Source of the DNA: Candidatus Hydrogenedentota bacterium
GTDB lineage: Bacteria; Hydrogenedentota; Hydrogenedentia; Hydrogenedentales; SLHB01
Direction of reading: 5' to 3'
Assembly (NCBI GenBank): GCA_045863295.1
Contig: BTWA01000006.1
Location: forward strand, 128,697-192,696
Length of the DNA stretch: 64,000 nt
In this document: piece by piece, positions 5,223 through 60,884 of the stretch
Position numbering within the stretch: position 1 is the first letter of the stretch
Layout of the letters: every line of letters begins with the position of its first letter
Notes under the pieces: model-generated
Told to the model about the DNA's origin: nothing
Database searches by the model: none
Seen by the model: the letters and a program-made list of their open reading frames with translations, nothing else
Position numbers and translations under genes: made by a program

Positions 5223-6188
5223 TCACCCCTCGTCCGCCATCTGCCGCATCCGTTCGAAGCAATGCTCCACGAGCATTTCGTGCCCCCCTTCAAAGATAAC
5301 CAACGACACAGGTCCTGTCTGGCGCATGTAGTAAACAGCCCGGCCATCGATAGGCTTACTTTCCGTCGATTGTCCAACATTTCTGCTCAGCAAGTTGATC
5401 ATGTCCTCCATGGAAACGAGCGAGGGGTGACCCGGCGCCAATACCGCCACCTTGTTGTAAAACAAAAGGGAGTGAGAGATCGGAACGCTTCCTGTGTAGC
5501 CATCATGTATACCTTCGTAGATTTCGAGTTGCCCATTCGGCAGTTGCGTCACATTCCAGTGCAGCGGTGACCGGCGTCTGGCCTCCTCGCTATCCAACGC
5601 AGCACCGGACGACGTGCTCCGCAGTATATGATCGGCATATTCCTGTTTTGCGTTGACGCACTGCCAGTACCACGCTTCGATGTCGCTGATGGCTGCCCAG
5701 GCCAGAAAGGCCTTGACCGGATGGCGGGTTCTCAAATAGGTGCCCAGGGTTGCGTAGCCGCCTCCCGATACGCCGGTGACAAAGATATTGCTGGTATCCA
5801 CCTTTCCCGTGGTGAGGGCAAATTGTATCGCGTCGTCGATGTCGGCAATGGCTTTGTCGCTCAAACACGCATCTGGCGACCAATTCGGACCTCGAAAGTC
5901 AGGGTGGATGTAGTTCCAATTGGCTTCCAGCGCCTTGGCGGCCAGCGGGTCCGTCTGGGTATAGTTGCCTGACCAGGTATGAAGGCTGACAAGCAGCGGT
6001 CGAGGGGTATCACCCTGAGATTGGGCAAAATATGCACGTTGCAAGACCCCGTCCAGGCTGCTGGGAATGTCTATCAACGTATACTCCCCTGGCCATGGTT
6101 CGGGTGAAGGATCGGGAGTTCCCTTGGTGACGCACCCGGCAACCAGCAAAACGATAAAGAACAGGGAAAAGGGATAGAGTGATTTCAT
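5223..6188 (-). CDS. alpha/beta-hydrolase-fold lipoprotein (S9-like esterase/peptidase)
   Basis: The lipoprotein signal MKSLYPFSLFFIVLLVAGC is followed by the GxSxG nucleophile elbow GVSGGG and a downstream His. The start was chosen at the internal Met that precedes the signal peptide. Confidence 0.55.
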   Translation of the reverse strand: MKSLYPFSLFFIVLLVAGCVTKGTPDPSPEPWPGEYTLIDIPSSLDGVLQRAYFAQSQGDTPRPLLVSLHTWSGNYTQTDPLAAKALEANWNYIHPDFRGPNWSPDACLSDKAIADIDDAIQFALTTGKVDTSNIFVTGVSGGGYATLGTYLRTRHPVKAFLAWAAISDIEAWYWQCVNAKQEYADHILRSTSSGAALDSEEARRRSPLHWNVTQLPNGQLEIYEGIHDGYTGSVPISHSLLFYNKVAVLAPGHPSLVSMEDMINLLSRNVGQSTESKPIDGRAVYYMRQTGPVSLVIFEGGHEMLVEHCFERMRQMADEG

Positions 6189-39776: not shown

Positions 39777-40652
39777 CTACGGCCTCCGATACGTCTTTAA
39801 GACGCGCTGGGCCACCAGGTTGAGCATAAACGTTGCCAGCAACAAGACCACTCCAATCCAGAAAAGGGCCTGATAATGCGTACTTCCGTACACGACCTCT
39901 CCCAGTTCGCCTGCAATCGTTGCGGTCATGGTGCGTACACGGCTTGTTGGTGAAAGGGTAATCACCGGTGCGTTGCCGGTGACCATAAGTACAGCCATGG
40001 TTTCTCCGATGACACGGCCCATACCCAGCATGATGCTGGCAATGATTCCGGACATGGCGGCAGGAACAGTCACTTTCCACATGGTTTGGAAGCGGCTCGC
40101 GCCCAAGGCCATGGATGCCTCTTTGTACGCCATGGGGACGCTGCGTATCGCATCTTCGGATATTGTAATTATGGTGGGTATGGCCATGAATGCCAACAGC
40201 AGGGCGCCTGTCAACGCCGTCTTGCCCGTGTCCAGATGGAACAACTTCATCACAATTGGGCCGAGCACAACGACGCCAAAGAATCCCAGGACCACGGACG
40301 GAATGGCGGCAATCAATTCGACGAAAGGCTTCAGGATTTCACGTTCCCAACTTTCGGCGACCTCAGCGATATACACGGCTCCGCAAATGCCAAATGGAAT
40401 GGCGAACAGCATCGCCAAAACAGTCACTGATAACGATCCTACGACAAGCGGATAGATTCCAAACTCCACTTCCTGCATGGACGTTGGAGCCCAAGAAGAC
40501 CCCAGCAGGGCGCCGAGTCCTGGCTTATGAATGAATGGAAACGCTTCCTTAAAAAGAAACAGAAAAATCAAGACCACGATCAAGATGCTGGTGGAGGCAG
40601 CAATTCGCAGGGCGTAACGGACGGCAATTTCGAGAAACTGGCGTTTTCCCAT
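39777..40652 (-). CDS. pstC: phosphate ABC transporter permease PstC
   Basis: Six-TM permease with the EAA loop (MALGASRFQTMWKVTVP). Confidence 0.85.
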   Translation of the reverse strand: MGKRQFLEIAVRYALRIAASTSILIVVLIFLFLFKEAFPFIHKPGLGALLGSSWAPTSMQEVEFGIYPLVVGSLSVTVLAMLFAIPFGICGAVYIAEVAESWEREILKPFVELIAAIPSVVLGFFGVVVLGPIVMKLFHLDTGKTALTGALLLAFMAIPTIITISEDAIRSVPMAYKEASMALGASRFQTMWKVTVPAAMSGIIASIMLGMGRVIGETMAVLMVTGNAPVITLSPTSRVRTMTATIAGELGEVVYGSTHYQALFWIGVVLLLATFMLNLVAQRVLKTYRRP

Positions 40653-41530
40653 TACTTCACCGTAACGTACCCTTCTTCCGTCACGATGGCTTGCCCTTTT
40701 TCGCCCGTGCAGAATTCGATGAAACCTGCCAGCGCCGGATTGGCCTCGCCTGCGGTGTAGAAGTAAAGCGGTCTGGCGATGGAGTATTCACCGGAGCGCA
40801 CGGTGGTCTCACTCGGGACCACCGGTTCCGCATCGGCCGATTTGCGGACCGGTATGACTTTGATCTTGTCTCCCGCAGCATCCGCATACCCTAATCCAAC
40901 ATAGCCGATCGCTCCTGGCGATTCCTGCACGCTTTGAATCACGGCGGATGTGGCGGGCAACAACAATGCTGTGGGTGCATAGTTTTCCTTGTTCAGCACG
41001 TGCTCCAAGAAAAACATGTAGGTTCCCGAACTGGATTCACGGGAGCAAACAACAATTTCAGCGTCTGATCCTCCCACTTGATTCCAATTCGTGATTGTAC
41101 CGGTGTAGATGCTTTTCAACTGTTCCAAGGAGAGATCGGCCACGGGATTCGACGGGTTGACCACGATGGCAATGCCATCCAAAGCAACGGCATACTCCTT
41201 GATTTCGTGTCCTTTGGCGGCCGCTTGTTCACGTTCCTCGGGGGTCATATCCCGTGACGAGGCGCAAATATCCGTCGTACCGTTCAAGAGGGCTGCAATA
41301 CCGGTACCCGAGCCGCCACCCGTGACGGGAATGCTCACGTCCGGTTGGACTTGCTGATAGCTGACTACCCATTTTTTGACGAGGTGCAACATGGTGTCCG
41401 AACCTTTTATGGACACCACTGGACCCGTATTACCTCCGCCGCCGCACGACACGAACGCCAACAGCGAAATGGCCGCCAAGCCGGACACACGAAATGAACT
41501 TTGCAACCGCATTGCTGTCCCCCTTTTCAT
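40652..41530 (-). CDS. pstS: phosphate-binding lipoprotein PstS
   Basis: Lipobox LAFVSCGG. PBP-like body with GSGTG and SRES motifs. Confidence 0.85.
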   Translation of the reverse strand: MKRGTAMRLQSSFRVSGLAAISLLAFVSCGGGGNTGPVVSIKGSDTMLHLVKKWVVSYQQVQPDVSIPVTGGGSGTGIAALLNGTTDICASSRDMTPEEREQAAAKGHEIKEYAVALDGIAIVVNPSNPVADLSLEQLKSIYTGTITNWNQVGGSDAEIVVCSRESSSGTYMFFLEHVLNKENYAPTALLLPATSAVIQSVQESPGAIGYVGLGYADAAGDKIKVIPVRKSADAEPVVPSETTVRSGEYSIARPLYFYTAGEANPALAGFIEFCTGEKGQAIVTEEGYVTVK

Positions 41531-41567
41531 ATACCGAAAGACTCCCGGGCAAGACGAGAGGCGTAGT

Positions 41568-41596
41568 GTAGCTGTCCTCTGTTAGGAAATTGTTAA
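41568..41596 (-). promoter_or_regulatory. candidate Pho box (three 7-mers at 11-bp periodicity) upstream of pstS
   Basis: The minus strand reads TTAACAA-tttc-CTAACAG-agga-CAGCTAC, 45-75 nt upstream of the pstS ATG. It resembles the PhoB direct-repeat architecture (7+4). Confidence 0.3.
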
Positions 41597-41759
41597 AACG
41601 GCCGAAAATCCTTCGCGTGCAAGTGTTTACATAAATAGTGGATTTCGCCAAAACCCACCCAATTCATCGCACTCGAACGAAGTATGTCGAGACCGAGTTA
41701 CCTGAATACACTGTAGCCGTTGATCCTTTTGCCCCCAGTGGTTTGGGCAACAGAATGTG

Positions 41760-43559
41760 TTATTCGCTGGAACCCTCGATTGGTGCCAGCGATTCTGCCA
41801 TCCGTATACTGAACTCGCTGCCCTTGTTCAGATTGCTTTCGACGCTTATCTCACCCCCGTGTAACCGGACAATATGTTTTACGATGGCCAAGCCCAGGCC
41901 GGTTCCCCCCAGTTTTCGACTTCGGGCACGGTCCACCCGGTAGAATCGTTCAAATATTCGAGGTATGTGTTCTTGCTCGATTCCGCAGCCCTGATCCCGG
42001 ACCTTTATGTAGACTCCTGCCCCATTTTTATGCGCCTCGACAAAGACTTCTGTACCGTTTTCGCTGTACTTTATGGCGTTTTCCAGTAGGTTTCCCACCG
42101 CCAATTGCAGCAATGACGGATTCATTCTGATCTGCAGTTCCGGATCGGTGTCCACCCGAAGATGGATGTTTTTGCCGGCGGCCATCTGAAGGTATTGTTG
42201 AACCGCGGCTTCCACCACCGGTGCAAGTGGCGCACGTTGAATAACGATTTCGTCGCTGTGGTCGTCCCTCTCCAGCCGTGAGAGGGTCAAGAGGTCTTCA
42301 ATCAGCAAATTCAGCCTTTCGGCCTGCTTTCCGATAATGGTTAAGAATCTCCTGGCGTCGTCTGGGTCTGACATGGCCCCTTCAAGGAGGGTTTCCACAT
42401 AACCTTTAATTGACGTTATGGGCGTTTTCAATTCGTGGGAAACGTTGGCGACGAAATCCTTGCGCGCTTGTTCTAGCCGGCGTAACCGTGTGATGTCGTA
42501 CAAGACGATAAGCACACCAAACGTTCTTCTTTTTGAATCCGTAAGTGGGGTGCCTTGAACACTGAGGACCCGTTCCTGTCGCCTGCGCAGCACGATTTCA
42601 CCCTCGACGGGTTCCATTTTTTCCAGAGCGCGCGTAATCAGGCGGAGCAACTCGGCGTTTCGAATGGCTTCATGTATGGTTCTTCCCAGTACTCTTTCGG
42701 GTTCGATTTCGATCATGCGGGCGGCCGCTGAATTCATACTCAATATTCGTTCGTCCGAGTCAATGGCGAGCACGCCCTCGATCATGGAGGACAAGACCGC
42801 TTCGAGTTCGTTCTTTTGCCGGGTAACGGCGCCCATTCGATCTTCCAACTGGAGCGCCATTCGATTCATGGCATCGGCCAGCCCCCCCATCTCCTCGGAG
42901 TCGGGGACATTTAGCCGGCTGCGCAGGTCCCCCTGTGCAAACCGGTGGGCACCTCGCGTCATTTCCTCGAGCGGCCGGGTAATTCTTCTTGAGACAATCA
43001 AGCTGAGGGGAATGGCAATGATTACGATTACGCCGCAGCCGAATGCGATTTCCCGATAGATGCGTGAGAGAGCGGATACGGCAGTGCCAAACGGCACGGC
43101 GGCGCGAACAGCCGCGATTACTTTGCCGTCCACAACGGCGGGCTTGGCGGCGTACACCATGTGGGTGTTCAACGAGTCACTGAATCGATCGGACTGTGTG
43201 GGAAGACCGGAGAGGGCCCCCCTGATCTCGGGCCGGCCGCTCAGATTTTCGATCGTATTCGGATCCGCCAGGGAATCCGCCACGACTTTGCCGTCGGGCA
43301 AAACAACCGTGATTTGGGTGCCCGATTCGCTTGCAAGCTGCCTGCAAAGGGATTGCAGGGTTTTGAAATCGCCTTCACGCAGAGGTACCAGCAAATGGGG
43401 TATGGCCAAGCTTGCCCTAGCCTCCAGATCCTGGCGGGTTTCATTGAGGTGGAATCCGCGCAACGCCGTGGAGGCGTAAATGCTCAACGCCATCGTGGTT
43501 CCCAGTATGATGACAAGGAACCACGGAAAGAGCTGCCATATGAGCCGGCGCCGCGGCAT
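41760..43559 (-). CDS. phoR: phosphate regulon sensor histidine kinase (PhoR-like, with periplasmic domain)
   Basis: Domain order TM, periplasmic domain, TM, HAMP, PAS, HisKA (SHELKTP), HATPase_c (GGTGLGLAIVKH). It sits immediately downstream of phoB. Confidence 0.8.
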   Translation of the reverse strand: MPRRRLIWQLFPWFLVIILGTTMALSIYASTALRGFHLNETRQDLEARASLAIPHLLVPLREGDFKTLQSLCRQLASESGTQITVVLPDGKVVADSLADPNTIENLSGRPEIRGALSGLPTQSDRFSDSLNTHMVYAAKPAVVDGKVIAAVRAAVPFGTAVSALSRIYREIAFGCGVIVIIAIPLSLIVSRRITRPLEEMTRGAHRFAQGDLRSRLNVPDSEEMGGLADAMNRMALQLEDRMGAVTRQKNELEAVLSSMIEGVLAIDSDERILSMNSAAARMIEIEPERVLGRTIHEAIRNAELLRLITRALEKMEPVEGEIVLRRRQERVLSVQGTPLTDSKRRTFGVLIVLYDITRLRRLEQARKDFVANVSHELKTPITSIKGYVETLLEGAMSDPDDARRFLTIIGKQAERLNLLIEDLLTLSRLERDDHSDEIVIQRAPLAPVVEAAVQQYLQMAAGKNIHLRVDTDPELQIRMNPSLLQLAVGNLLENAIKYSENGTEVFVEAHKNGAGVYIKVRDQGCGIEQEHIPRIFERFYRVDRARSRKLGGTGLGLAIVKHIVRLHGGEISVESNLNKGSEFSIRMAESLAPIEGSSE

Positions 43560-43562
43560 CAG

Positions 43563-44249
43563 CTACTCCTTGAAGCGATACCCCACACCGCGTACCGTTT
43601 CAATATACTGCCCATGACTCCCCAATTTCTTGCGCAATCCGACGATTTGTACGTCCACGGCCCTATCCGTAACAGGATACCCTTCTCCACGCACCGCGTC
43701 CACGATTTGCGATCGCGTGAACACCCAACCGGGTCTTCTTGCCAGGCATTGGAGCACTTTGAACTCCGTAAACGTCAGTTCCACCGGATTTCCTTGTAAT
43801 AGGACTTCGTGCCGGCCAGGATGGATAACCATATCATGAATTCGAAGTGGCGCCTCTTTGTCGGGTATGTCGGCTTTTCTGCGCCGCAGAACCGAATGGA
43901 TACGTGCGAGCAATATCTTGGGACTAAATGGCTTGGTAATGTAGTCGTCCGCACCCAATTCAAGGCCTCGGACTACATCGGATTCCTCTCCCCGCGCCGT
44001 CAACATAACCACGGCCAGATCCTTGGTCTTGGGGTCATTTTTCAGCAAGGTGCATATCTCAAGTCCGTTCAGGCCTGGCAACATCAGGTCCAACACTACA
44101 AGACTTGGCAGCAGTGAACGGGCTTGTTTCAGCGCTTCGCCTCCTGTGGAAACGCAGGTTACCTGAAAACCGGCCTTGGAGAGGTTATATCCAACTAGCT
44201 CCAGGATATCTTCTTCGTCGTCGACCACCAGAATCGTTTCTTTGGGCAT
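43563..44249 (-). CDS. phoB: phosphate regulon response regulator (OmpR/PhoB family)
   Basis: Receiver domain LVVDDE...D54-equivalent...K, then a winged-helix C-terminus ending GVGYRF. Confidence 0.85.
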   Translation of the reverse strand: MPKETILVVDDEEDILELVGYNLSKAGFQVTCVSTGGEALKQARSLLPSLVVLDLMLPGLNGLEICTLLKNDPKTKDLAVVMLTARGEESDVVRGLELGADDYITKPFSPKILLARIHSVLRRRKADIPDKEAPLRIHDMVIHPGRHEVLLQGNPVELTFTEFKVLQCLARRPGWVFTRSQIVDAVRGEGYPVTDRAVDVQIVGLRKKLGSHGQYIETVRGVGYRFKE

Positions 44250-44456
44250 GGCTGTTAAAGGTCTTTCCTTCAATTTCGCGCACATTGGCCACAGTACCTG
44301 CGACGATTCTACGGGTTTGCTGTTAGCGTTCCATTAAAACCGAGGAATTCTATAATTTTAACTGTCATGGCCTCGAATCCTGGGCGATGGCCTCCTTCGG
44401 CTTGCCGAATCGTTTGGCATTTTCTCTCGGCGAACGCTTCCATGTATGATGGTGCT

Positions 44457-52497: not shown

Positions 52498-54156
52498 TCA
52501 CGCATATTCTGAAGCCTCTAGAATGGCCATTACCTCGTGCGCGTGTCTTGCGCCAACAAGGGATTCCACCAAGCGGTCATCCCCTGCAACTTTGGCCACA
52601 AGCGCCAACGCGCGCAAATGGACATCGTTGGGCTCCACGGGAGAAAGCAACAGGATGACCAAGCGCACCACGGATTCCACCGCTTCATCGCTGACACCGT
52701 CCGGTGCAATCCCAATCGCCACAATTGGGTTGTCCAGTCCGGGCACACGAGCATGGGGAATGCCTGTGTGCAGTCCGAGAAACGTAGACCCCTGTGCTTC
52801 CCGATCTTGGATGGCCCGCAAAATGGCATCCAAAGACAAGGATGGGTAGTCTCTTGAGCATACTTCCGCGAGTTCTTTCAACACAGCATTCTTGGACATG
52901 GGCATTGACCAGAGCAGGATACGGCGATCGGTAACGTAGTCTGTCAGGCGCAAGGGCTTGTTTGACGCTGAAGGAGATGCACTCGTCGCTTCCGCGTTCG
53001 CTTGTCGTGAGGGCGGTTCCACTGCCGTCGATTGCGTATCGAGCACAACGACGTTGATTCCACGGGCTGTGTAGAGCAGGTCTTCCACGGGACTGACCTG
53101 TCCAAGCATGCGTCGCCACCACGTTGGCCGCCCGCCCGGCGATCCGACTACGATATGGCTGATTCGATACTCTTTCGCGAACTGGAGAATGGTTTTTACA
53201 ATATCTTCACCCTTGTACGTGAACACCGTTGCGCCCAGCTGTTGAGCGATCGCGAGCGTATTAGCCAGTACTCGCTGTGTTTGCGCGTCAATTTGAGTTG
53301 GACTTTCGGCGGTCGTCTGTACGTAGACGGCGTACCAATTCCTGTTCAGCCGTCCGGCAAGGCGAGACGCATAACGCAACAACGCTTCGCTGTTGGGGCC
53401 GCGAGAACTCAGGCATACCATGATCTGATCCAGGCTTGAGGCCGCATCGTCGCTGTCAACGTCGCGCCGGCGGGAATCAATTTGCGATGCCATCTCCCGA
53501 AGGGTCAGCTCCCTCAGCTCCGCTAGGTTCGAATCGCGGAAGAAGCTGTCTAACGCAACATCAATGCGCTCGTGCGTATAAACCTTCCCTTCGCGAAGCC
53601 TTTTGCGCAGATCCTCCGTGGTAACGTCCACATTGACAATCTCGTCCGCTTCGAGCACCACACGATCCGGAATGCGCTCGCGCACGCGCACGCCGGTACT
53701 GCGCTCAACTGTATCGTACAAACTCTCCAAATGTTGTACATTCAAGGTAGATATGACATGGATTCCAGCAGATCGAATATCTTCCACGTCCTTGTATCGC
53801 TTTGCATTCTTGCTGCCGGGAACATTGGTGTGGGCCAATTCATCCACTAGGACAACGGCTGGACGCCGTGCAAGCACTGCGCCCAGGTCCATCTCCTCGA
53901 TAACGATTCCCTTGTACCGAGACGAGCGGCGCGGGACTAACTCCAATCCGGCCACAAGCGCATCGGTTTCTTTACGTCCGTGGGTTTCCACGTAGCCCAC
54001 AACAACATCAATGCCCTCGAGCATCATGCGATGGGCTTCTTGAAGCATCTGATACGTTTTTCCCACGCCAGCGCAGTAACCCAGATAAATCTTCAGGCGT
54101 CCGCGCTGCGAACGGCGGATCATGCGCAGGAAGTTGTCAGCCCGTGTTGATTCCAT
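52498..54156 (-). CDS. soluble KdpD N-terminal sensor domain + USP domain + PTS EIIA(Ntr)-like domain fusion (no histidine-kinase domain)
   Basis: The N-terminus RGRLKIYLGYCAGVGKTYQML is the KdpD-domain P-loop-like start. A USP-like region (IMVCLSS...HIVVGSPGG) follows. The C-terminal ~150 aa show the EIIA type-2 pattern with a His in GLHTGIPHARV. There are no TM helices and no HisKA/HATPase. Last gene after kdpC. Confidence 0.7.
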   Translation of the reverse strand: MESTRADNFLRMIRRSQRGRLKIYLGYCAGVGKTYQMLQEAHRMMLEGIDVVVGYVETHGRKETDALVAGLELVPRRSSRYKGIVIEEMDLGAVLARRPAVVLVDELAHTNVPGSKNAKRYKDVEDIRSAGIHVISTLNVQHLESLYDTVERSTGVRVRERIPDRVVLEADEIVNVDVTTEDLRKRLREGKVYTHERIDVALDSFFRDSNLAELRELTLREMASQIDSRRRDVDSDDAASSLDQIMVCLSSRGPNSEALLRYASRLAGRLNRNWYAVYVQTTAESPTQIDAQTQRVLANTLAIAQQLGATVFTYKGEDIVKTILQFAKEYRISHIVVGSPGGRPTWWRRMLGQVSPVEDLLYTARGINVVVLDTQSTAVEPPSRQANAEATSASPSASNKPLRLTDYVTDRRILLWSMPMSKNAVLKELAEVCSRDYPSLSLDAILRAIQDREAQGSTFLGLHTGIPHARVPGLDNPIVAIGIAPDGVSDEAVESVVRLVILLLSPVEPNDVHLRALALVAKVAGDDRLVESLVGARHAHEVMAILEASEYA

Positions 54157-54176: not shown

Positions 54177-54740
54177 TTAGCCTTGGCCATCCAAAGCCAT
54201 ATTGATTTCAAGTACATTCACCAAAGAATCCGGCGTAAACGGCCCGCCAGGACGTCTCGCTTTGCCCTCGACGATTTGCTTCACGATTCCTGGATCCATT
54301 CCGCGGGCGGCAGCCACTCGTTCGACCTGAAAAAGCGCGGCTTCCAACGTTATGTCCGGATCCATGCCACTGCCCGAGGCCGTCACAAGATCGGCCGGAA
54401 TGGGATCGGTTGATTCACCGTGGCGGCTTTGAAAGTCGGCGACCCTGTCTTTCAGCACCGGGTTTAGTGGGCTCAAGTTGCTGCCACCGGTGCTGGCCGC
54501 GTTGTAGTCCACGGCGGAAGGCCTTGGCCAAAAGTAGTTGGCGGATGTAAACGACTGGCTCAGCACCCGGCTTCCAACAATCTGGCCATCCGCATTGGTG
54601 AGCAGGCTTCCATTCGCCGTGAAAGGCGTGAGACCCTGACCAATGCCCCAAATGGAGAGGGGATACGCAATCGAACAAACAGCAATCGTACAAGCCCAGA
54701 TGCGTACACACGCGAGTAGTTGGTCGGAATTGGTTTTCAT
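54177..54740 (-). CDS. kdpC: potassium-transporting ATPase subunit C
   Basis: Single N-terminal TM, then GSNLSPLNP...ASGSGMDPDIT(L)EAA, which are conserved KdpC motifs. Confidence 0.85.
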   Translation of the reverse strand: MKTNSDQLLACVRIWACTIAVCSIAYPLSIWGIGQGLTPFTANGSLLTNADGQIVGSRVLSQSFTSANYFWPRPSAVDYNAASTGGSNLSPLNPVLKDRVADFQSRHGESTDPIPADLVTASGSGMDPDITLEAALFQVERVAAARGMDPGIVKQIVEGKARRPGGPFTPDSLVNVLEINMALDGQG

Positions 54741-54752
54741 ACACTTTCCATC

Positions 54753-56822
54753 CTATGCCAATCTCGTGATAACGAGCACGAGGTCGATTACTTTAATGCC
54801 TACAAACGGGGCAATGACACCGCCGATTCCATAGATCAGCAAGTTCCTGCGCAGTATTGCGTCTGCGCCAATGGGCCGGTACTTGACGCCCTTGATGGCG
54901 ATGGGAACCAGCAACGGAATAACGATGGCATTGAAGATAACTGCCGACAGGATTGCGCTGTTTGGCGATCCCAGTCGCATGATGTTCAATGCGCTCAATT
55001 GCGGTATGGCCAACATGAACATGGCGGGCACTATGGCAAAATACTTCGCCACATCGTTCGCAATGGAAAATGTCGTCAACGCACCCCGGGTCATCAACAA
55101 TTGCTTACCAATTTCGATGACTTCAATGAGCTTTGTTGGGTCGCTGTCCAAATCAACCATATTGCCTGCTTCCTTGGCGGCGTGGGTGCCGGAATTCATG
55201 GCCACGCCGATATCGGCTTGGGCAAGTGCAGGTGCGTCATTTGTTCCATCGCCCATCATGGCTATCAGATGGCCTTTTGCCTGCTCCTTTCGAATGTAAT
55301 CCAGTTTATCCTCGGGTTTCGCCTCGGCAATGTAATCATCGACTCCGGCTTGTCTGGCAATCGCGGCCGCGGTCAACGGATTGTCTCCCGTAACCATAAC
55401 CACACGCAGGCCCATGCTGCGAAGACGGACAAAGCGATCCCGTATACCCGGTTTCAATACATCCGACAACGCGATCACACCCAGGATTTCTTTTCCCTCC
55501 GCAACCACAATGGGCGTTGATCCGGCACGCGCCACGGATTCGACTAGGTCCTTCAGTTCCCGTGGCACGGCGCCGCCTTGTCCGGAGACATATGTAACTA
55601 CCGCATCGCTCGCGCCTTTTCGGTAACTCTTTCCCATAGGAACGTCCAGTCCGCTCAGGCGAGTCTGGGCCGTAAAGGGAATCACGACAGACCCTGGAAC
55701 TTCCTGAGGAACCGCATTTCCGAGCGTTTCTTCGCCCAAGGAAACAATCGATCGTCCTTCTGGGGTCCTATCCCCAAAGGAGGCAAGCATCCCGGCTTCG
55801 GCAAGCCTCCTGCGAACAATGCCGGGTAGCGGGTGGTATTCTGTCGCGTGCCGGTTGCCCATGGTAATCGTACCGGTCTTGTCGAGCAGCAAAGTATCGA
55901 CGTCACCGGCGAGTTCCACGGCCTTGCCGCTCTTCGCCAACACATTGGCCGACAAGGCGTGATCCATGCCTGCCAGCCCGATTGCAGCCAACAATGCTCC
56001 AATGGTAGTGGGTATAAGGCAAACGAGTAACGCCACAAGCGTCGGTACGGGGATATCGACTCCAAAGTAGCGCCCAATCGGCCACAAAGCCATCGTTACC
56101 ATCAGAAACGACAAGGTCAGACCTGCAAGTGTTACCGTCAAGGCGATTTCGTTTGGGGTCTTTTGACGGATTGCTCCTTCGACCAGCGCGATCATCCGAT
56201 CGAGAAATGACTCGCCCGCACCGGCGGTGATTTTAATGGTCAGCCGATCAGAAAGCACCCGCGTCCCGCCGGTAACCCCGGATCGATCGCCGCCTGCTTC
56301 GCGCACCACCGGGGCGGATTCCCCTGTAATCGCGGACTCGTCCACCGTAGCGGCACCATCCACCACTTCACCATCGCTTGGAATTACTTCCCCTGCCTTG
56401 ACAACAACTACGTCGCCATTGGAAAGGGCATCCGAAGCAACCATTTCTTCCTTGCCATTGGAAAGGCGCCGCGCCGGCGTGCTCTTGCGTGTTGATCGAA
56501 GTGTATCGGCCTGGGCCCGGCCACGCGCCTCGGCCAGTGCTTCCGCAAAATTTGCGAAGATGACCGTCAACCAAAGCACAAGCGTCAATACGGTTGTGTG
56601 CGCCAGGTTGCCGGCGCCTTGCATCACATCAAGAACAAGCACGACGGTGCTGAGCGCAGCGCCTATTTCAGTGACAAACATGACGGGGTTGCGCGCCATG
56701 ATATCCGGACGTAACATTGCCAGCGATTGAATCGCGGCGGCACGCACAAGCTTTCCATCAAAGAGCGATGCCTTGCGCGCGTGGCGGCGAACCAGCTTGG
56801 CTGAATCCAATTCTGTACTCAT
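54753..56822 (-). CDS. kdpB: potassium-transporting P-type ATPase subunit B
   Basis: Phosphorylation motif DKTGTIT, TGDN, GDGTNDAPAL, and the KdpB-specific N-terminus. Confidence 0.9.
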   Translation of the reverse strand: MSTELDSAKLVRRHARKASLFDGKLVRAAAIQSLAMLRPDIMARNPVMFVTEIGAALSTVVLVLDVMQGAGNLAHTTVLTLVLWLTVIFANFAEALAEARGRAQADTLRSTRKSTPARRLSNGKEEMVASDALSNGDVVVVKAGEVIPSDGEVVDGAATVDESAITGESAPVVREAGGDRSGVTGGTRVLSDRLTIKITAGAGESFLDRMIALVEGAIRQKTPNEIALTVTLAGLTLSFLMVTMALWPIGRYFGVDIPVPTLVALLVCLIPTTIGALLAAIGLAGMDHALSANVLAKSGKAVELAGDVDTLLLDKTGTITMGNRHATEYHPLPGIVRRRLAEAGMLASFGDRTPEGRSIVSLGEETLGNAVPQEVPGSVVIPFTAQTRLSGLDVPMGKSYRKGASDAVVTYVSGQGGAVPRELKDLVESVARAGSTPIVVAEGKEILGVIALSDVLKPGIRDRFVRLRSMGLRVVMVTGDNPLTAAAIARQAGVDDYIAEAKPEDKLDYIRKEQAKGHLIAMMGDGTNDAPALAQADIGVAMNSGTHAAKEAGNMVDLDSDPTKLIEVIEIGKQLLMTRGALTTFSIANDVAKYFAIVPAMFMLAIPQLSALNIMRLGSPNSAILSAVIFNAIVIPLLVPIAIKGVKYRPIGADAILRRNLLIYGIGGVIAPFVGIKVIDLVLVITRLA

Positions 56823-56853
56823 GATTTCATAAACTCCGTTAAAGATACGTGTA

Positions 56854-58530
56854 TTACAGGGTTCCGGCGAGGTGCTCGGCAATGGGGCCAAGCACCGCCA
56901 CCGGAAGGAAGAGTAGCGCGCCTATGAGCGCAACACTTCCCAGCAAGACCAACCCGAACATGGGTGTGTCGGTACGAAATGTGCCAGTAGACTCAGGCAC
57001 CGGCTTTTTGGCGGCCAGCGATCCAGCAATGGCCAAAGGCAGAATAATGGGCACATAGCGGCAAAAGAGCATCACGAGGCCCGTGGCAAGATTCCACGGA
57101 ATCGTATTGTCTCCAAGACCTTCGTAACCCGATCCGTTGTTGGCCGCAGCCGAGGAGAACTCGTACAGAATCTCCGTGAAGCCGCGTGCTCCTGGATTCT
57201 TTACGGTTCCAATTCCCCAGGAGGTGGCGGCGAATGCAGCCGTACCGCCCAAGATGCACAACGGATGAAGCAGCAGTGCGATGAGCGCCAGCTTCATCTC
57301 GCGTGTTTCCACCTTGCGCGCCAGATATTCGGGCGTACGTCCTACCATCATGCCGCAAATAAAGACACCGATGATGATATAGATGAACATGTTGATCATG
57401 CCGACGCCCACGCCACCGAACGTTACATTGAGCCACATACCGGCCAATGGGGCGAGACCGGTCAACGGATTCAGGCTATTGTGCATGGCGTTAACCGAAC
57501 CATTACTGGTGGACGTGGTCGCGGTTGCCCAGAACGGTGCGGCGGTGGCGCCAAAGCGCAGCTCTTTCCCTTCCAGGTTGCTTGACTCCGTGGAAACCGG
57601 CAAGCCGGCAAAAGAGGCCGTAGGCTCCGATTCCCAACAAACCGCCCACGAAACCTTGCAAACGAATAGCATCATCATGACTGTGAATATCACGGCCGCA
57701 TGGCGCATTCGGCCAGTTATTCTGCCAAACATCCAGACGCTTGCCATCGGAATGATGATAATGCAGAGACATTCCACGCAATTTGTAAAGAACGATACGT
57801 TTTCATAGGAATGCGTCGAGTTTGGCCCGAAGAAACCACCACCGTTGGTACCCAATTGCTTGATGGTAACGAACGCAGCCACGGGGCCTCTCGCAATCGT
57901 CTGTACGGCGCCTTCCAGAGTGGTCGCCTGTATGGCCCCACCAAAGGTCATGGCAATTCCACCAAGAACCAATGTTGTGGCCACGACGAATGCCACTGGC
58001 ACAAGGAACAACAAGGTCGCGCGCAAGAGGTCGCGATAGAAGTTTCCGATCTTGACGCTACCGGACAAGCCACGCGCCATGGCAGCGAGCGCGGCTATGC
58101 CCGTAGCGGCAGAAACAAACTGCAGCCACATCAGCGCACCCAATTGCGAAAAATAGCTCAGCGTGGACTCGCCGGAATAGTGCTGCAGATTGGTGTTGGT
58201 GACAAAAGACACCACGGTGTTGAATACCAGACTGGGCTCTATTGAGCCCAGTCTGTCGGGGTTCAAGGGAAGGTGCTGCTGTATGCTCAAGACCGCAAAC
58301 ACGAAAATGAACATGCACACGTTGAAAAGCAGCAGTGCCAGACAGTACTGCTTCCAATTCTGTTCCCTTCGCGCTGCCGGTCCGGTCACCCAAACGATTA
58401 CGCGTTCCATGGATACGCGCAATCCCGTCTCAGCGACGGGATCACTCATGGCCCAGGTCAAGTACCGTCCAAGCGGTACCGAAATTAGGACCGCTGTGCC
58501 GAGGAACATAATTACCAATGCGATTGACAT
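56854..58530 (-). CDS. kdpA: potassium-transporting ATPase subunit A
   Basis: Ten-TM KdpA with selectivity-filter-like G-rich loops (TNTNLQHY; GTNGGGFFG; NNGSGYEG). Confidence 0.9.
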   Translation of the reverse strand: MSIALVIMFLGTAVLISVPLGRYLTWAMSDPVAETGLRVSMERVIVWVTGPAARREQNWKQYCLALLLFNVCMFIFVFAVLSIQQHLPLNPDRLGSIEPSLVFNTVVSFVTNTNLQHYSGESTLSYFSQLGALMWLQFVSAATGIAALAAMARGLSGSVKIGNFYRDLLRATLLFLVPVAFVVATTLVLGGIAMTFGGAIQATTLEGAVQTIARGPVAAFVTIKQLGTNGGGFFGPNSTHSYENVSFFTNCVECLCIIIIPMASVWMFGRITGRMRHAAVIFTVMMMLFVCKVSWAVCWESEPTASFAGLPVSTESSNLEGKELRFGATAAPFWATATTSTSNGSVNAMHNSLNPLTGLAPLAGMWLNVTFGGVGVGMINMFIYIIIGVFICGMMVGRTPEYLARKVETREMKLALIALLLHPLCILGGTAAFAATSWGIGTVKNPGARGFTEILYEFSSAAANNGSGYEGLGDNTIPWNLATGLVMLFCRYVPIILPLAIAGSLAAKKPVPESTGTFRTDTPMFGLVLLGSVALIGALLFLPVAVLGPIAEHLAGTL

Positions 58531-58665
58531 AACTTCCTGTCCTTCATTAGGAGCCGCACTCTGTTGGCGGCGAATATTCCCGTATGCCGCGCCATTGCGG
58601 CGCGTAGCCATACAAGGAATCAAGGGTTTGTCCTGCCGGATGTACCGGCGTCGGGTGACTACAAA

Positions 58666-58746
58666 TCAGAACCGTTCAGGTCTGATCATGGCGTATGTCA
58701 AATACGCAAAGCAGAACAGGCCAATAAATGCGCTCAACCAACTCAT
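58666..58746 (-). CDS. kdpF: potassium-transporting ATPase subunit F (26-aa hydrophobic peptide)
   Basis: Translation MSWLSAFIGLFCFAYLTYAMIRPERF matches the KdpF consensus (MSxxxxxGxxxxxxLxxYLxYALxxPExF). It lies upstream of kdpA. Confidence 0.7.
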   Translation of the reverse strand: MSWLSAFIGLFCFAYLTYAMIRPERF

Positions 58747-59002
58747 GAAATTACTCCCAGTATTCAATTCGACGCGAGCTTCAAGCATGAGTCAATTCTC
58801 TTCTGCCAGGGTGCTGCACGGACTGTTCGCACTAAAGAGGTCCCTGGACAGACCGGACTTTTTGCATGCCGCCAACCCTTCTCCAGGAACTTGCTTGAGC
58901 ATCAAGATCAGGTTGGCGCACACGCGGAGGTTATCAACACAAGCAAACCCAACACTCCCAATCCAATCCCGAAGCACACCAGTAGGAACAGCATTTCACC
59001 AT

Positions 59003-60862
59003 TTACTCCATTGAAGTTGTATATGTAGCACCCATAGGCGACGCCGCGGGCAATGTAAACCACACGGTAGTTCCATGGCCGAGTTCTGACTCGACGCCGA
59101 TACTTCCGCCATGAGCCGCGACAATCTGACGCGCGATAGTCAATCCAAGTCCGGCTCCGGTTCCTTTTGGTTGTCCATCAGCACGATAAAATGGTTCAAA
59201 TGCGTGTGCCGCTTCGTCCTTTGACATTCCCGCACCTGTGTCGGAAATGCTGAACTTCACCATGCCCTCATTGGCCTCACAGTCCACACTGATCTCTCCG
59301 CCCGCGGTGGTGCACCGAATCGCGTTTGACAGTATGTTACTGAACACATGCTTCATGCGATCCGCATCCGCAAGTACGGATGGGACATCCACACCGGCCC
59401 GATTGACCAGCGCGATTCCTTTGTCGGTCGCCTCTGTCAAAAAGGCGTCAACAGCATCCCTGGTCAACGAATGCGCCTTGACAACCTCAAACTCCATCGC
59501 GCTCTTTCCTGACTGCATTTGGCGAATGTCCAATAAATCGCAAACTATTCCTGAAAGACGGTCGCAATCGTCCCGCGCCGCAAGTACGAGTTCGACTTGC
59601 TTCTCATTTAGCACACCCACCTGGTCATTCAAGAGCAAATGCAGCGACAATCGCAGAGAGGTAAGCGGGGTCTTCAACTGGTGAGATACCGTTGCGATTG
59701 CGTCTTGCTTAAGTTCGGCCTGTTCTTGCGCATAAGTCACATCCCGCAACATAACGGCCACTCCCGTAACCTCGCCGGAATGCGGCCCGACTGGTATAGG
59801 CATAATTACAGGCTTAAAGAAGTGCTCCTCATTGTCGATAAACCGCTGAATGACACCTTCTCCATCCGATTGTTCGATGACTCGCCGTTCGATGAACGCC
59901 TTGGCAATCAGAGGCGGCAACCAGTCCAGTCCCGCATCCCTGACTCTCCTGCCTTGTTCAAGCCCGAAATGCCGTGCTGCCGACTCGGTCGCCACTTCCA
60001 CGCGTCCTTCCAAATCAAGTACGGCCACCGTGGCGGGCAACGCCTTGAATACGTTTTCCGTGCCCTCTTTCCTTCTACGCAATTCCAACTGCTCTGCTCG
60101 CCGGACACTGCGCAGCGAAGCGGCCATTTCGTTAAACGTCTCTGAGAGTTGCCCTAATTCGTCGGTCGATCTGACAGGTAGCACAAGATCCAGATTGCCC
60201 TGCTTTATGTCGAGCGCCGATTGCGTTAACACTCGTATTGGACTAAGCACCCAGACGTGAATCAGATACCCGAAAAGAACCGCTACGGAAGCACAAACGA
60301 GGAAAGCCAAGGACATACGCCGCATTGCCGCCGCGGCCTCTTCACGGGCCAGGTTGTTCGCCTCATGTATGTTGCTCTGATTAAGATCGAGTATGGACTG
60401 GGCCGAACTCTTGATTTCATAGAAATGCGGCAGCAGGCTCTCAAAATAAGCGGTCTGACGATCTTGAGCCGGTTTGGACTTGTCTCTCGCGGATTCCAGT
60501 ATATGAACATACTCCCCGAAGAGTTCACGCACGTGCTCGGCCTTTTCGCGCTCTCCAGGAATCGTGATATTATTTAGCTCTACATCGAGCGCCGACTGGA
60601 ATTTTTGTACATGATCGTCAATCAAGCGGTCGCCTTGTTCTTCATAATCCAGCAACGTGAAAAGAATGCCGCTGTCAATCCGCTCCAACGACTCCTTCAT
60701 CTCCTGACACGCGATCACGCTCCGGTAGTTCTCCCGGAGTATGGTGTCAATGGCATCGCCGAGTCGGCTGATCTGAAGCATCGTAAGTCCACCGATCACG
60801 CCGATGGTGACCAGGATGCCCGCAAATCCAAGAAGCAACTTCTGTCGAATACCAAACCGCAT
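59003..60862 (-). CDS. sensor histidine kinase (TM, periplasmic helical sensor, TM, HAMP, PAS, HisKA, HATPase_c)
   Basis: HisKA H-box VSHQLKTPLTS, and N, G1 and G2 boxes (NILSNAIRCT, DTGAGM, GAGLGLTIAR). The start is set at the ATG preceded by GAGGAG, because the upstream TTG codon lies upstream of the predicted sigma-54 transcription start. Confidence 0.8.
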   Translation of the reverse strand: MRFGIRQKLLLGFAGILVTIGVIGGLTMLQISRLGDAIDTILRENYRSVIACQEMKESLERIDSGILFTLLDYEEQGDRLIDDHVQKFQSALDVELNNITIPGEREKAEHVRELFGEYVHILESARDKSKPAQDRQTAYFESLLPHFYEIKSSAQSILDLNQSNIHEANNLAREEAAAAMRRMSLAFLVCASVAVLFGYLIHVWVLSPIRVLTQSALDIKQGNLDLVLPVRSTDELGQLSETFNEMAASLRSVRRAEQLELRRRKEGTENVFKALPATVAVLDLEGRVEVATESAARHFGLEQGRRVRDAGLDWLPPLIAKAFIERRVIEQSDGEGVIQRFIDNEEHFFKPVIMPIPVGPHSGEVTGVAVMLRDVTYAQEQAELKQDAIATVSHQLKTPLTSLRLSLHLLLNDQVGVLNEKQVELVLAARDDCDRLSGIVCDLLDIRQMQSGKSAMEFEVVKAHSLTRDAVDAFLTEATDKGIALVNRAGVDVPSVLADADRMKHVFSNILSNAIRCTTAGGEISVDCEANEGMVKFSISDTGAGMSKDEAAHAFEPFYRADGQPKGTGAGLGLTIARQIVAAHGGSIGVESELGHGTTVWFTLPAASPMGATYTTSME

Positions 60863-60884
60863 TTCGCACTCCTCATCCAATCAG

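Follow-up and report, generated by a model that had tools for sequence, protein, structure and literature searches.

The 64-kb window analyzed here (64,000 nucleotides of contig BTWA01000006.1 from a Candidatus Hydrogenedentota bacterium) carries a kdp operon for K+ uptake, and the last gene of this operon, here called kdpD', was the subject of the present analysis. Its product is a soluble protein of 552 amino acids that joins the N-terminal domain of KdpD (KdpD-N) and a Usp domain to an EIIA domain of the PtsN (EIIA(Ntr)) type. We propose that this fusion protein may be a stand-alone Ser kinase for KdpB that is gated in cis by phosphotransferase system (PTS) phosphorylation of its own EIIA domain, and we give this reading a probability of about 0.45. 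A first-pass annotation, made from the letters of the window, had described the three-domain architecture and the position of the gene. Both were confirmed: the open reading frame (ORF) runs exactly from 52498 to 54156 on the minus strand and is the last of the kdpF-A-B-C operon. The gene and the parts of its product are as follows.

52498..54156, minus strand: kdpD' gene, encoding the 552-amino-acid soluble KdpD-N/Usp/EIIA(Ntr)-like fusion (ORF, Pfam, NCBIfam)
53479..54108, minus strand: KdpD N-terminal domain, residues 17-226 (PF02702, PDB 2R8R, Foldseek)
53092..53427, minus strand: Usp domain, residues 244-355 (PF00582, Foldseek 7JI4)
52960..53031, minus strand: disordered variable linker, residues 376-399 (predicted local distance difference test [pLDDT] <50; no alignment consensus)
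52516..52923, minus strand: EIIA type-2 PtsN-like domain, residues 412-547 (PF00359, TIGR01419, 1A6J fold)

In the Pfam analysis, all three domains scored above their cut-offs. PF02702 (KdpD) matched residues 17-226 with 310.9 bits (cut-off 26.1) over profile positions 1-210 of 210, PF00582 (Usp) matched residues 244-355 with 32.2 bits (cut-off 24), and PF00359 (PTS_EIIA_2) matched residues 412-547 with 62 bits (cut-off 27) over profile positions 7-142 of 144. The fusion protein gave no Pfam match to DUF4118, GAF, HisKA, or HATPase_c, even at E ≤ 1, and no transmembrane-like segment was found in it; the 19-residue Kyte-Doolittle maximum was 1.3, with zero windows above 1.6, and the neighboring histidine kinase (HK), used as a positive control, gave 24 such windows. 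The absence of transmembrane, GAF, HisKA, and HATPase segments, which the first-pass annotation had also reported, was thus borne out. The canonical KdpD model NF007793 scored 363.9 bits against a cut-off of 1123 and covered only profile positions 10-355, so that the protein lies outside this family. When the structure was predicted by AlphaFold2 with a 113-sequence alignment, residues ~400-552 had a pLDDT of ~88-94 and the linker (residues 376-399) was disordered, whereas the confidence of the N-terminal domain was only moderate because the alignment was of shallow diversity.

The fusion is not confined to this window. When one genome per GTDB species was scanned with six peptide patterns, at least 250 relatives were found, a lower bound; the best 80 of these were examined as related loci, and all conservation counts given below come from 191 distinct sequences. 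In two homology searches (120 matches each), PF02702 and PF00359 were present together in all of at least 240 database clusters among the matches listed, with lengths of ~545-597 amino acids. A 50%-identity representative library was uninformative on family size (the full-length family forms few clusters there, and most matches were fragments or other EIIA proteins). The best 80 loci belonged mostly to Desulfobacterota/Thermodesulfobacteriota sensu lato and also to Aminicenantes, Hydrogenedentota, Planctomycetota (Anaerohalosphaeraceae), Riflebacteria, Krumholzibacteria, an FCB-group bacterium, and Deferrimicrobia. Few if any of the carriers have been cultured; complete chromosomes with the fusion include OY970122.1, OY970261.1, OY821638.1, and CAWGVV010000001.1. 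Desulfomonile tiedjei I4C4T7 was considered as a cultured carrier and was not confirmed, the second homology search returning only proteins from metagenomes and metagenome-assembled genomes (MAGs). The databases also contain a protein identical to the fusion, which comes from a MAG of Candidatus Hydrogenedentota (P0001, "hypothetical protein AMXMBFR84_13850").

These comparative data bear on the possibility that the gene is an artefact, in which part of kdpD became joined to a separate ptsN gene through a frameshift or an assembly error, or in which the kinase half was recently lost; the first-pass annotation had named such an event as one outcome that could overturn its reading. The continuous architecture is shared by 191 distinct proteins, by the at least 240 clusters listed, and by several phylum-level lineages. 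The length of the family is stable (median 561 amino acids among the 191 sequences), and the inter-domain linker, although variable at 25-48 amino acids, is always in frame. A 5.1-kb region was also base-identical in a separate Logan assembly, which possibly derives from the same reads. The relatives, their lengths, and their in-frame linkers therefore exclude a frameshift, a mis-assembly, or a recent deletion, and we regard an artefact as having practically no chance of being correct.

To the first-pass annotation, the protein appeared to lack any kinase domain, and this description has to be revised. The N-terminal domain of KdpD alone is an atypical Walker-A/B Ser kinase that phosphorylates KdpB at S162 and inhibits KdpFABC (Silberberg 2024, PMC11018627), and the catalytic residues of this Ser-kinase type are invariant or nearly so in the fusion family. 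The residues G36/K37/T38, W39/R190, and D109/E110 of Escherichia coli KdpD are essential for phosphorylation of KdpB-S162 (PMC11018627). In the fusion protein, the Walker A motif is G26-x5-G32K33T34, followed by Y35, the Walker B residues are D105/E106, and R186 is present. With an offset of 4, G32/K33/T34, Y35, D105, E106, and R186 correspond to E. coli G36/K37/T38, W39, D109, E110, and R190. The GKT of Walker A, D105/E106, and R186 were conserved in 191/191 relatives, and the position of Y35, which stands where E. coli KdpD has W, was aromatic (Y/W/F) in 190/191. PDB entry 2R8R matched this domain by sequence (E = 5e-67) and also by Foldseek. The presumptive target is encoded in the same operon: the TGES motif, which contains the Ser equivalent to S162, is present in the KdpB of the window (nucleotides 56316-56327). 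A protein of Deinococcus geothermalis that consists only of KdpD and Usp domains phosphorylates KdpB and is stimulated by cyclic di-AMP (c-di-AMP), and KdpD versions without an HK predominate in species without KdpE (PMC11018627). By analogy with these systems, we infer that the fusion protein may have Ser-kinase activity on KdpB. That study and its supplements mention no EIIA or PTS domain and contain no EIIA-bearing class, and its tables list the D. tiedjei and Desulfovibrio vulgaris proteins just as "KdpD domain, Usp domain" (PMC11018627).

For the C-terminal module, profile search, PDB sequence match, and predicted fold agreed with the EIIA type-2 assignment made in the first-pass annotation. 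The best NCBIfam match was the PtsN model TIGR01419 (52.9 bits), which ranked above the fructose and mannitol EIIA models. In the PDB sequence search, the top four matches were all PtsN (1A6J, 3URR, 4GQX, and 2A0J). The predicted module was superimposed by Foldseek on 1A6J with a TM-score of 0.90 at 1.9 Å; the TM-scores to EIIA-2 structures ranged from 0.79 to 0.90, and PtsN structures ranked above the sugar-type EIIAs (3OXP, CmtB) and above all non-PTS folds. In the alignment to E. coli PtsN (1A6J), R452 corresponds to R57, H468 to the phospho-acceptor H73, and H513 to H120. H468 (codon 52753-52755) is the His of GLHTGIPHARV that had been singled out beforehand as a candidate phospho-His, and it was kept in 191/191 relatives; R452 was kept in 187/191. 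By sequence and predicted fold, the module is PtsN-like and has all the features expected of a phosphorylatable EIIA. As neither the window nor the 80 related loci yielded a phospho-donor, it is from this conservation that we infer phosphorylation of H468, which is accordingly named here as a putative phosphorylation site.

The nearest EIIA modules outside the family were sought in a 1.8-billion-protein representative library. They were fused to Na_H_Exchanger antiporters of the cation:proton antiporter (CPA) type, often with tandem EIIA domains and sometimes with an additional TrkA_N domain (P0168, P0250, P0166, and P0265). In a further protein, P0211, the EIIA domain is joined to a DacZ-type diadenylate cyclase (EIIA-DacZ_P-DAC). 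Both kinds of fusion are tied to K+ homeostasis and independently support the link between PtsN-like domains and K+. They suggest that proteins of K+ homeostasis have repeatedly been equipped with PtsN-like domains as built-in regulators.

The Usp domain bears on the question of what the input of the Ser kinase might be. The middle domain of the fusion corresponded in Foldseek to 7JI4, the structure of a KdpD USP domain, and its motif, R261-x3-R265-x8-W274YAVY278, is the E. coli-type RXXXR-X8-WXAVY. The motif of the c-di-AMP-binding KdpD(Sa) type, SXS-X20-FTAXY, was not found in this domain (motif classes from PMC4686210). One alternative holds that c-di-AMP is the main input, with the Usp domain binding it and stimulating the Ser kinase as in the Deinococcus KdpD/Usp protein, and that the EIIA domain is accessory. 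The stimulation of the D. geothermalis KdpD (DgKdpD) Ser kinase by c-di-AMP (PMC11018627) and the occurrence of the P0211 diadenylate cyclase fusion among the nearest EIIA relatives are in line with this alternative. However, because the Usp motif belongs to the E. coli class and not to the c-di-AMP-binding one, a Deinococcus-like c-di-AMP input is less likely and the EIIA domain becomes the obvious candidate input. We therefore consider a main role for c-di-AMP improbable.

In the proposed mechanism, the fusion protein would act as a soluble stand-alone regulator of KdpFABC. On the model of E. coli KdpD and the short KdpD/Usp protein of Deinococcus, its KdpD-N Ser kinase would phosphorylate the Ser of the TGES motif in KdpB, a post-translational modification that would shut the pump down. 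The flexible linker would hold this kinase to the C-terminal PtsN-like EIIA domain, which a carrier of the HPr/NPr type would reversibly phosphorylate on His468, and this phosphorylation would gate the Ser kinase. The coupling between EIIA phosphorylation and the Ser kinase, in either direction (on or off), is thus a putative one. K+ pumping would in this way follow the phosphorylation state of the PTS, that is, the carbon, nitrogen, and energy status of the cell, and transcription of the operon would be handled separately by a co-encoded HK and a sigma54-type response regulator (RR) in place of the KdpD-HK/KdpE pair. In a more specific and more tentative form of the proposal, phosphorylation of the tethered EIIA domain would directly switch a Ser kinase that inactivates a P-type ATPase, giving a one-protein relay from PTS state to K+ pumping. 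This relay would be one instance of a wider use of PtsN-like modules, seen also on CPA-type antiporters and a diadenylate cyclase, in anaerobic and mostly metagenome-only lineages.

The genes upstream of kdpD' were annotated as follows.

54177..54740, minus strand: kdpC (PF02669, 193.8 bits)
54753..56891, minus strand: kdpB, P-type ATPase, with TGES at 56316-56327 and DKTGT at 55869-55883 (Pfam, motifs)
56854..58623, minus strand: kdpA, given as the longest ORF; translation probably begins at M32, near 58530 (PF03814, 700 bits from residue 39)
58666..58746, minus strand: kdpF, 26 amino acids, MSWLSAFIGLFCFAYLTYAMIRPERF (TIGR02115, 26.2 bits against a cut-off of 26.85; NF011342, 30.8 bits)
59003..60880, minus strand: sensor HK with 4HB_MCP-like sensor, HAMP, PAS, HisKA, and HATPase_c, directly 5' of kdpF (Pfam, transmembrane segments)
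61058..~62410, minus strand: sigma54-dependent RR with REC, Sigma54_activat containing GAFTGA, and HTH_8; the start is approximate, and the longest ORF extends to 62668 (Pfam; NCBIfam AtoC/NtrC/ZraR-like)

The fusion gene starts 20 nucleotides past the kdpC stop and follows kdpF-A-B-C on the same strand. The gene on its 3' side encodes an acetolactate-synthase-like thiamine pyrophosphate (TPP) enzyme and is not conserved beside the fusion genes of the relatives; the interval between the two genes yielded neither an intrinsic terminator nor a sigma70-like promoter. Unbiased clustering of neighbors was performed for the 72 loci with an identifiable target gene, and the HK and RR counts were taken from the 45 loci in which the upstream sequence spans at least 9 kb. 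The fusion gene directly followed kdpC in 49/72 loci. A same-strand block of sigma54-type RR, HK, a small ORF in some cases, kdpF, kdpA, kdpB, kdpC, and the fusion gene was conserved, and the window is arranged likewise. The HK (orthologous cluster 4) was present in 43/45 loci, and both the HK and the RR were present in 33/45. The GAFTGA motif was found in the RR of the window and in 39/44 members of the RR cluster.

In agreement with the first-pass annotation, no kdpE was found in the window; that annotation had made no mention of the HK and sigma54-type RR upstream. The only OmpR-type RR in the window (43563-44285) was considered as a KdpE and rejected, since its best score was to PhoB and it lies beside a PhoR-like HK and pstS/pstC. 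It belongs to a phosphate-regulon cluster at 39777-44285 on the minus strand, ~8 kb from the kdp operon, that comprises pstC (39777-40652), pstS (40652-41530), the PhoR-like HK (41760-43559), and the PhoB-like RR (43563-44285). Because the HK and the sigma54-type RR are conserved upstream, the absence of kdpE does not mean that the operon has no dedicated transcription system. Transcription control has apparently been taken over by an HK and a sigma54-type RR that are unrelated to KdpD-HK/KdpE. In one related locus (L070, 11765-11941), a stretch of 59 residues directly 3' of the fusion gene had 59% identity to the DNA-binding C terminus of E. coli KdpE and could represent the remains of a kdpE gene or a divergent copy of it.

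A sigma54 promoter scan was performed with a weighted TGGCAC-N5-TTGCW score against the background of the same locus, and it covered the kdpF leader of the window, the gaps between the HK gene and kdpF in 38 relatives, and 320 nucleotides 5' of 33 RR genes. In the window, the best matches reached 10 of 15, and none was convincing as a -24/-12 promoter. In the HK-kdpF gaps, enrichment was weak or nil (11% vs a background of 4.4% at scores ≥13, and 11% vs 12% at ≥12), and 5' of the RR genes it was absent. Good -24/-12 sites were found in a few relatives, including L011 (TGGCACAGGCCATGCA) and L065 (TGGCTCTAGCCATGCT). Several apparent sigma54 sites were rejected as coding sequence, namely the GxGTTF codons conserved at the 3' end of the HK gene and sites in kdpA.

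Several results weigh against the PTS-gated Ser kinase and have to be set beside those that favor it. The model for non-kinase KdpD proteins, NF038185 (KdpD_non_kinase), gave 369 bits against a cut-off of 550 and matched residues 6-339 only, so that the fusion falls outside this family as well. The inter-domain geometry of the AlphaFold2 model is unusable (predicted TM-score 0.38), and a contact between the EIIA domain and the kinase site is therefore unsupported by it. The EIIA module scored well below the PtsN equivalog cut-offs (52.9 vs 138.7 bits for TIGR01419 and 35.9 vs 221 for NF008145); judged by these curated sequence models, it is not a PtsN orthologue. The position of H513 was His in 126/191 relatives and Gln in 64/191. 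Searches by tblastn with E. coli and Bacillus subtilis sequences of HPr, NPr, EI, and HprK, and also RpoN, returned no match in the 64 kb of the window or in the 80 related loci (±10 kb). Finally, the tight retention of the HK would fit a role in transcription equally well, and in 3 loci, where kdpABC is inverted or located elsewhere, the HK gene and the fusion gene were immediate neighbors. Such adjacency hints at a functional pairing of the HK and the fusion protein that is independent of the pump genes.

The points on the EIIA side would be expected if the EIIA-fold domain were a phosphorylation-independent regulator that binds a protein or ligand, like the EIIA-like fold of the cytoplasmic domains of anion exchangers (AEs). 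The lack of PTS donor genes in the searched regions, the replacement of the His120 equivalent by Gln in a third of relatives, and the scores under the equivalog cut-off are all consistent with such a regulator, and Foldseek also matched band 3/AE cytoplasmic domains, which have the same fold and no PTS function. However, the full conservation of H468 and the near-full conservation of R452 within a canonical "R-E-x-x-G-(S/G)-T ... P-H" active site would be hard to explain without phosphotransfer, and PtsN structures, not any non-PTS fold, were the top Foldseek matches. A role that does not involve phosphorylation is thus doubtful.

The points on the HK side lead to an explanation at the level of transcription. 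Here the fusion protein would be the cytoplasmic sensor half of a split KdpD that binds the co-encoded HK, and the EIIA domain would dock in trans on the dimerization and histidine phosphotransfer (DHp)/transmitter region of the HK, tuning phosphorylation of the sigma54 RR and hence kdp transcription rather than pump activity. The retention of the HK and RR upstream and the adjacency of the HK to the fusion gene in the 3 loci with no kdpABC in between are in favor of this explanation. So is D. vulgaris, in which KdpD is described as split into DVU3336 (sensor and Usp domains) and DVU3335 (HK) under the sigma54 RR DVU3334, which binds and regulates its own kdp operon (PMC3333781, PMC4641369), and so is the binding of E. 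coli PtsN to the HisKA/transmitter domain of KdpD. However, the 4HB_MCP-HAMP-PAS sensor of the HK has no homology to the transmembrane/GAF half of KdpD, so that the arrangement is not a literal split, and an N-terminal domain that served only as a scaffold would leave the full conservation of the Ser-kinase catalytic residues unexplained. We regard control at the transcription level as possible but, on balance, rather unlikely to be the main function; it would be compatible with the PTS-gated Ser kinase, and both could operate in the same protein.

Further small or split genes were observed around the family. In the relatives, a ~27-codon hydrophobic ORF lies between the HK gene and kdpF (consensus M-I-D-L-x-Y-I-...-F-F-G-L-C-x-L-Y-A-R-A-C-E-R-L*), and its start overlaps the HK stop (ATGA/GTGA), as in L038 (~5432-5515) and L065 (~5308-5394). 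The strict motif was present in 23/72 loci, always just 5' of kdpF, and has no NCBIfam match. The window does not contain it; a different hydrophobic ORF of 28 amino acids (MLFLLVCFGIGLGVLGLLVLITSACAPT) lies at the equivalent place (58908-58994, minus strand) and is a possible counterpart. In 7 loci (L002 11705-13018 and 6 others; cluster 7), a Usp-DUF4118-GAF protein is encoded beside the fusion gene; it matches the central portion of KdpD, lacking both the N-terminal domain and the kinase, and represents a further split of KdpD. In three Aminicenantes loci (L043 11880-13550; cluster 26), a 556-amino-acid protein encoded directly 3' of the fusion gene had a weak match to PPDK_N, the nucleotide-binding domain of phosphoenolpyruvate/pyruvate dikinase (24.4 bits, below the Pfam cut-off of 27), and could be relevant as a phosphoenolpyruvate-linked enzyme.

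The components of this system are each known: KdpD-N/Usp proteins as stand-alone Ser kinases, regulation of Kdp by PtsN, and sigma54 or split-KdpD operons. The three-domain architecture is widespread and is visible in precomputed Pfam annotations, and it is apparently undescribed; no description was found in the searchable literature, a coverage that does not extend to subscription-only papers. In the databases, NCBI/PGAP names the protein "PTS sugar transporter subunit IIA," whereas at JGI it appears as "two-component system sensor histidine kinase KdpD." Each of these names misleads, as the protein has neither a transporter nor a His-kinase domain, and they expose a systematic annotation problem. 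In the same way, surveys of KdpD that score only KdpD, Usp, and HK domains can miss the EIIA-fused class.

The fusion brings together two lines of work that have so far been separate, namely the action of PtsN on KdpD, TrkA, and YcgO in Proteobacteria and the Ser kinase of KdpD-N, described in 2024, that shuts off KdpFABC. It suggests the idea that PTS state could control the Ser-kinase (post-translational) arm of Kdp beyond the His-kinase arm. Such a bridge between PTS signaling and the newly found post-translational control of Kdp would be testable, and a soluble one-protein system could allow the idea to be tested in vitro; it would come as no surprise to a specialist.

Compared with the canonical KdpD/KdpE system (E. 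coli; NF007793), the fusion protein has no transmembrane, GAF, HisKA, or HATPase part and the window has no KdpE. It resembles the short KdpD/Usp proteins (DgKdpD Q1J2K3, NF038185, and DVU3336), which are likewise soluble, combine a Walker A/B KdpD-N with a Usp domain, lack transmembrane, GAF, HisKA, and HATPase parts, are linked to kdpFABC in a region without kdpE, and keep all the residues for KdpB-S162 phosphorylation. Whereas the proteins of the NF038185 type have two domains in ~373 amino acids, the fusion has an extra EIIA(Ntr)-like domain of ~150 amino acids after a disordered linker, and its Usp motif is of the E. coli type and not the c-di-AMP type.

The kdp cluster of D. vulgaris (DVU3334-3339; Rajeev 2011; Kazakov 2015) resembles that of the window in having a GAFTGA sigma54 RR, a separate HK, a KdpD-N/Usp protein, and kdpFABC in one cluster. 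The gene order differs, being RR-HK-kdpFABC-kdpD' in the window and kdpFABC-kdpD'-HK-RR in D. vulgaris, and DVU3336 is described with sensor and Usp domains only, in contrast to the EIIA-bearing fusion.

The EIIA domain itself compares best with E. coli PtsN (1A6J), with which it shares the fold, the closest sequence family, the equivalents of R57/H73/H120, and a functional connection to Kdp and K+ homeostasis. PtsN is a free protein of ~160 amino acids, whereas the EIIA of the fusion is a domain of a 552-amino-acid protein with ~25-29% identity to it and has no rpoN/ptsO/hprK neighborhood in the window or the 80 loci. Free PtsN binds KdpD in E. coli, Pseudomonas putida, and rhizobia, where ptsN2 lies within the kdpDE cluster, and a regulatory link between PTS(Ntr) and Kdp is established in these organisms; in E. 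coli, free PtsN also regulates TrkA and the K+/H+ antiporter YcgO. The contact sites of PtsN on KdpD have been mapped to the HisKA/transmitter domain (E. coli) and the GAF domain (Sinorhizobium fredii), and these parts of KdpD are missing from the partner in the fusion. The first-pass annotation had suggested that the fusion would be a Rosetta-stone confirmation of the PtsN-KdpD interaction. As the mapped contacts are absent, the specific physical contact finds no support in the fusion; what the fusion does support is the functional link, a coupling of the PTS(Ntr) pathway to Kdp.

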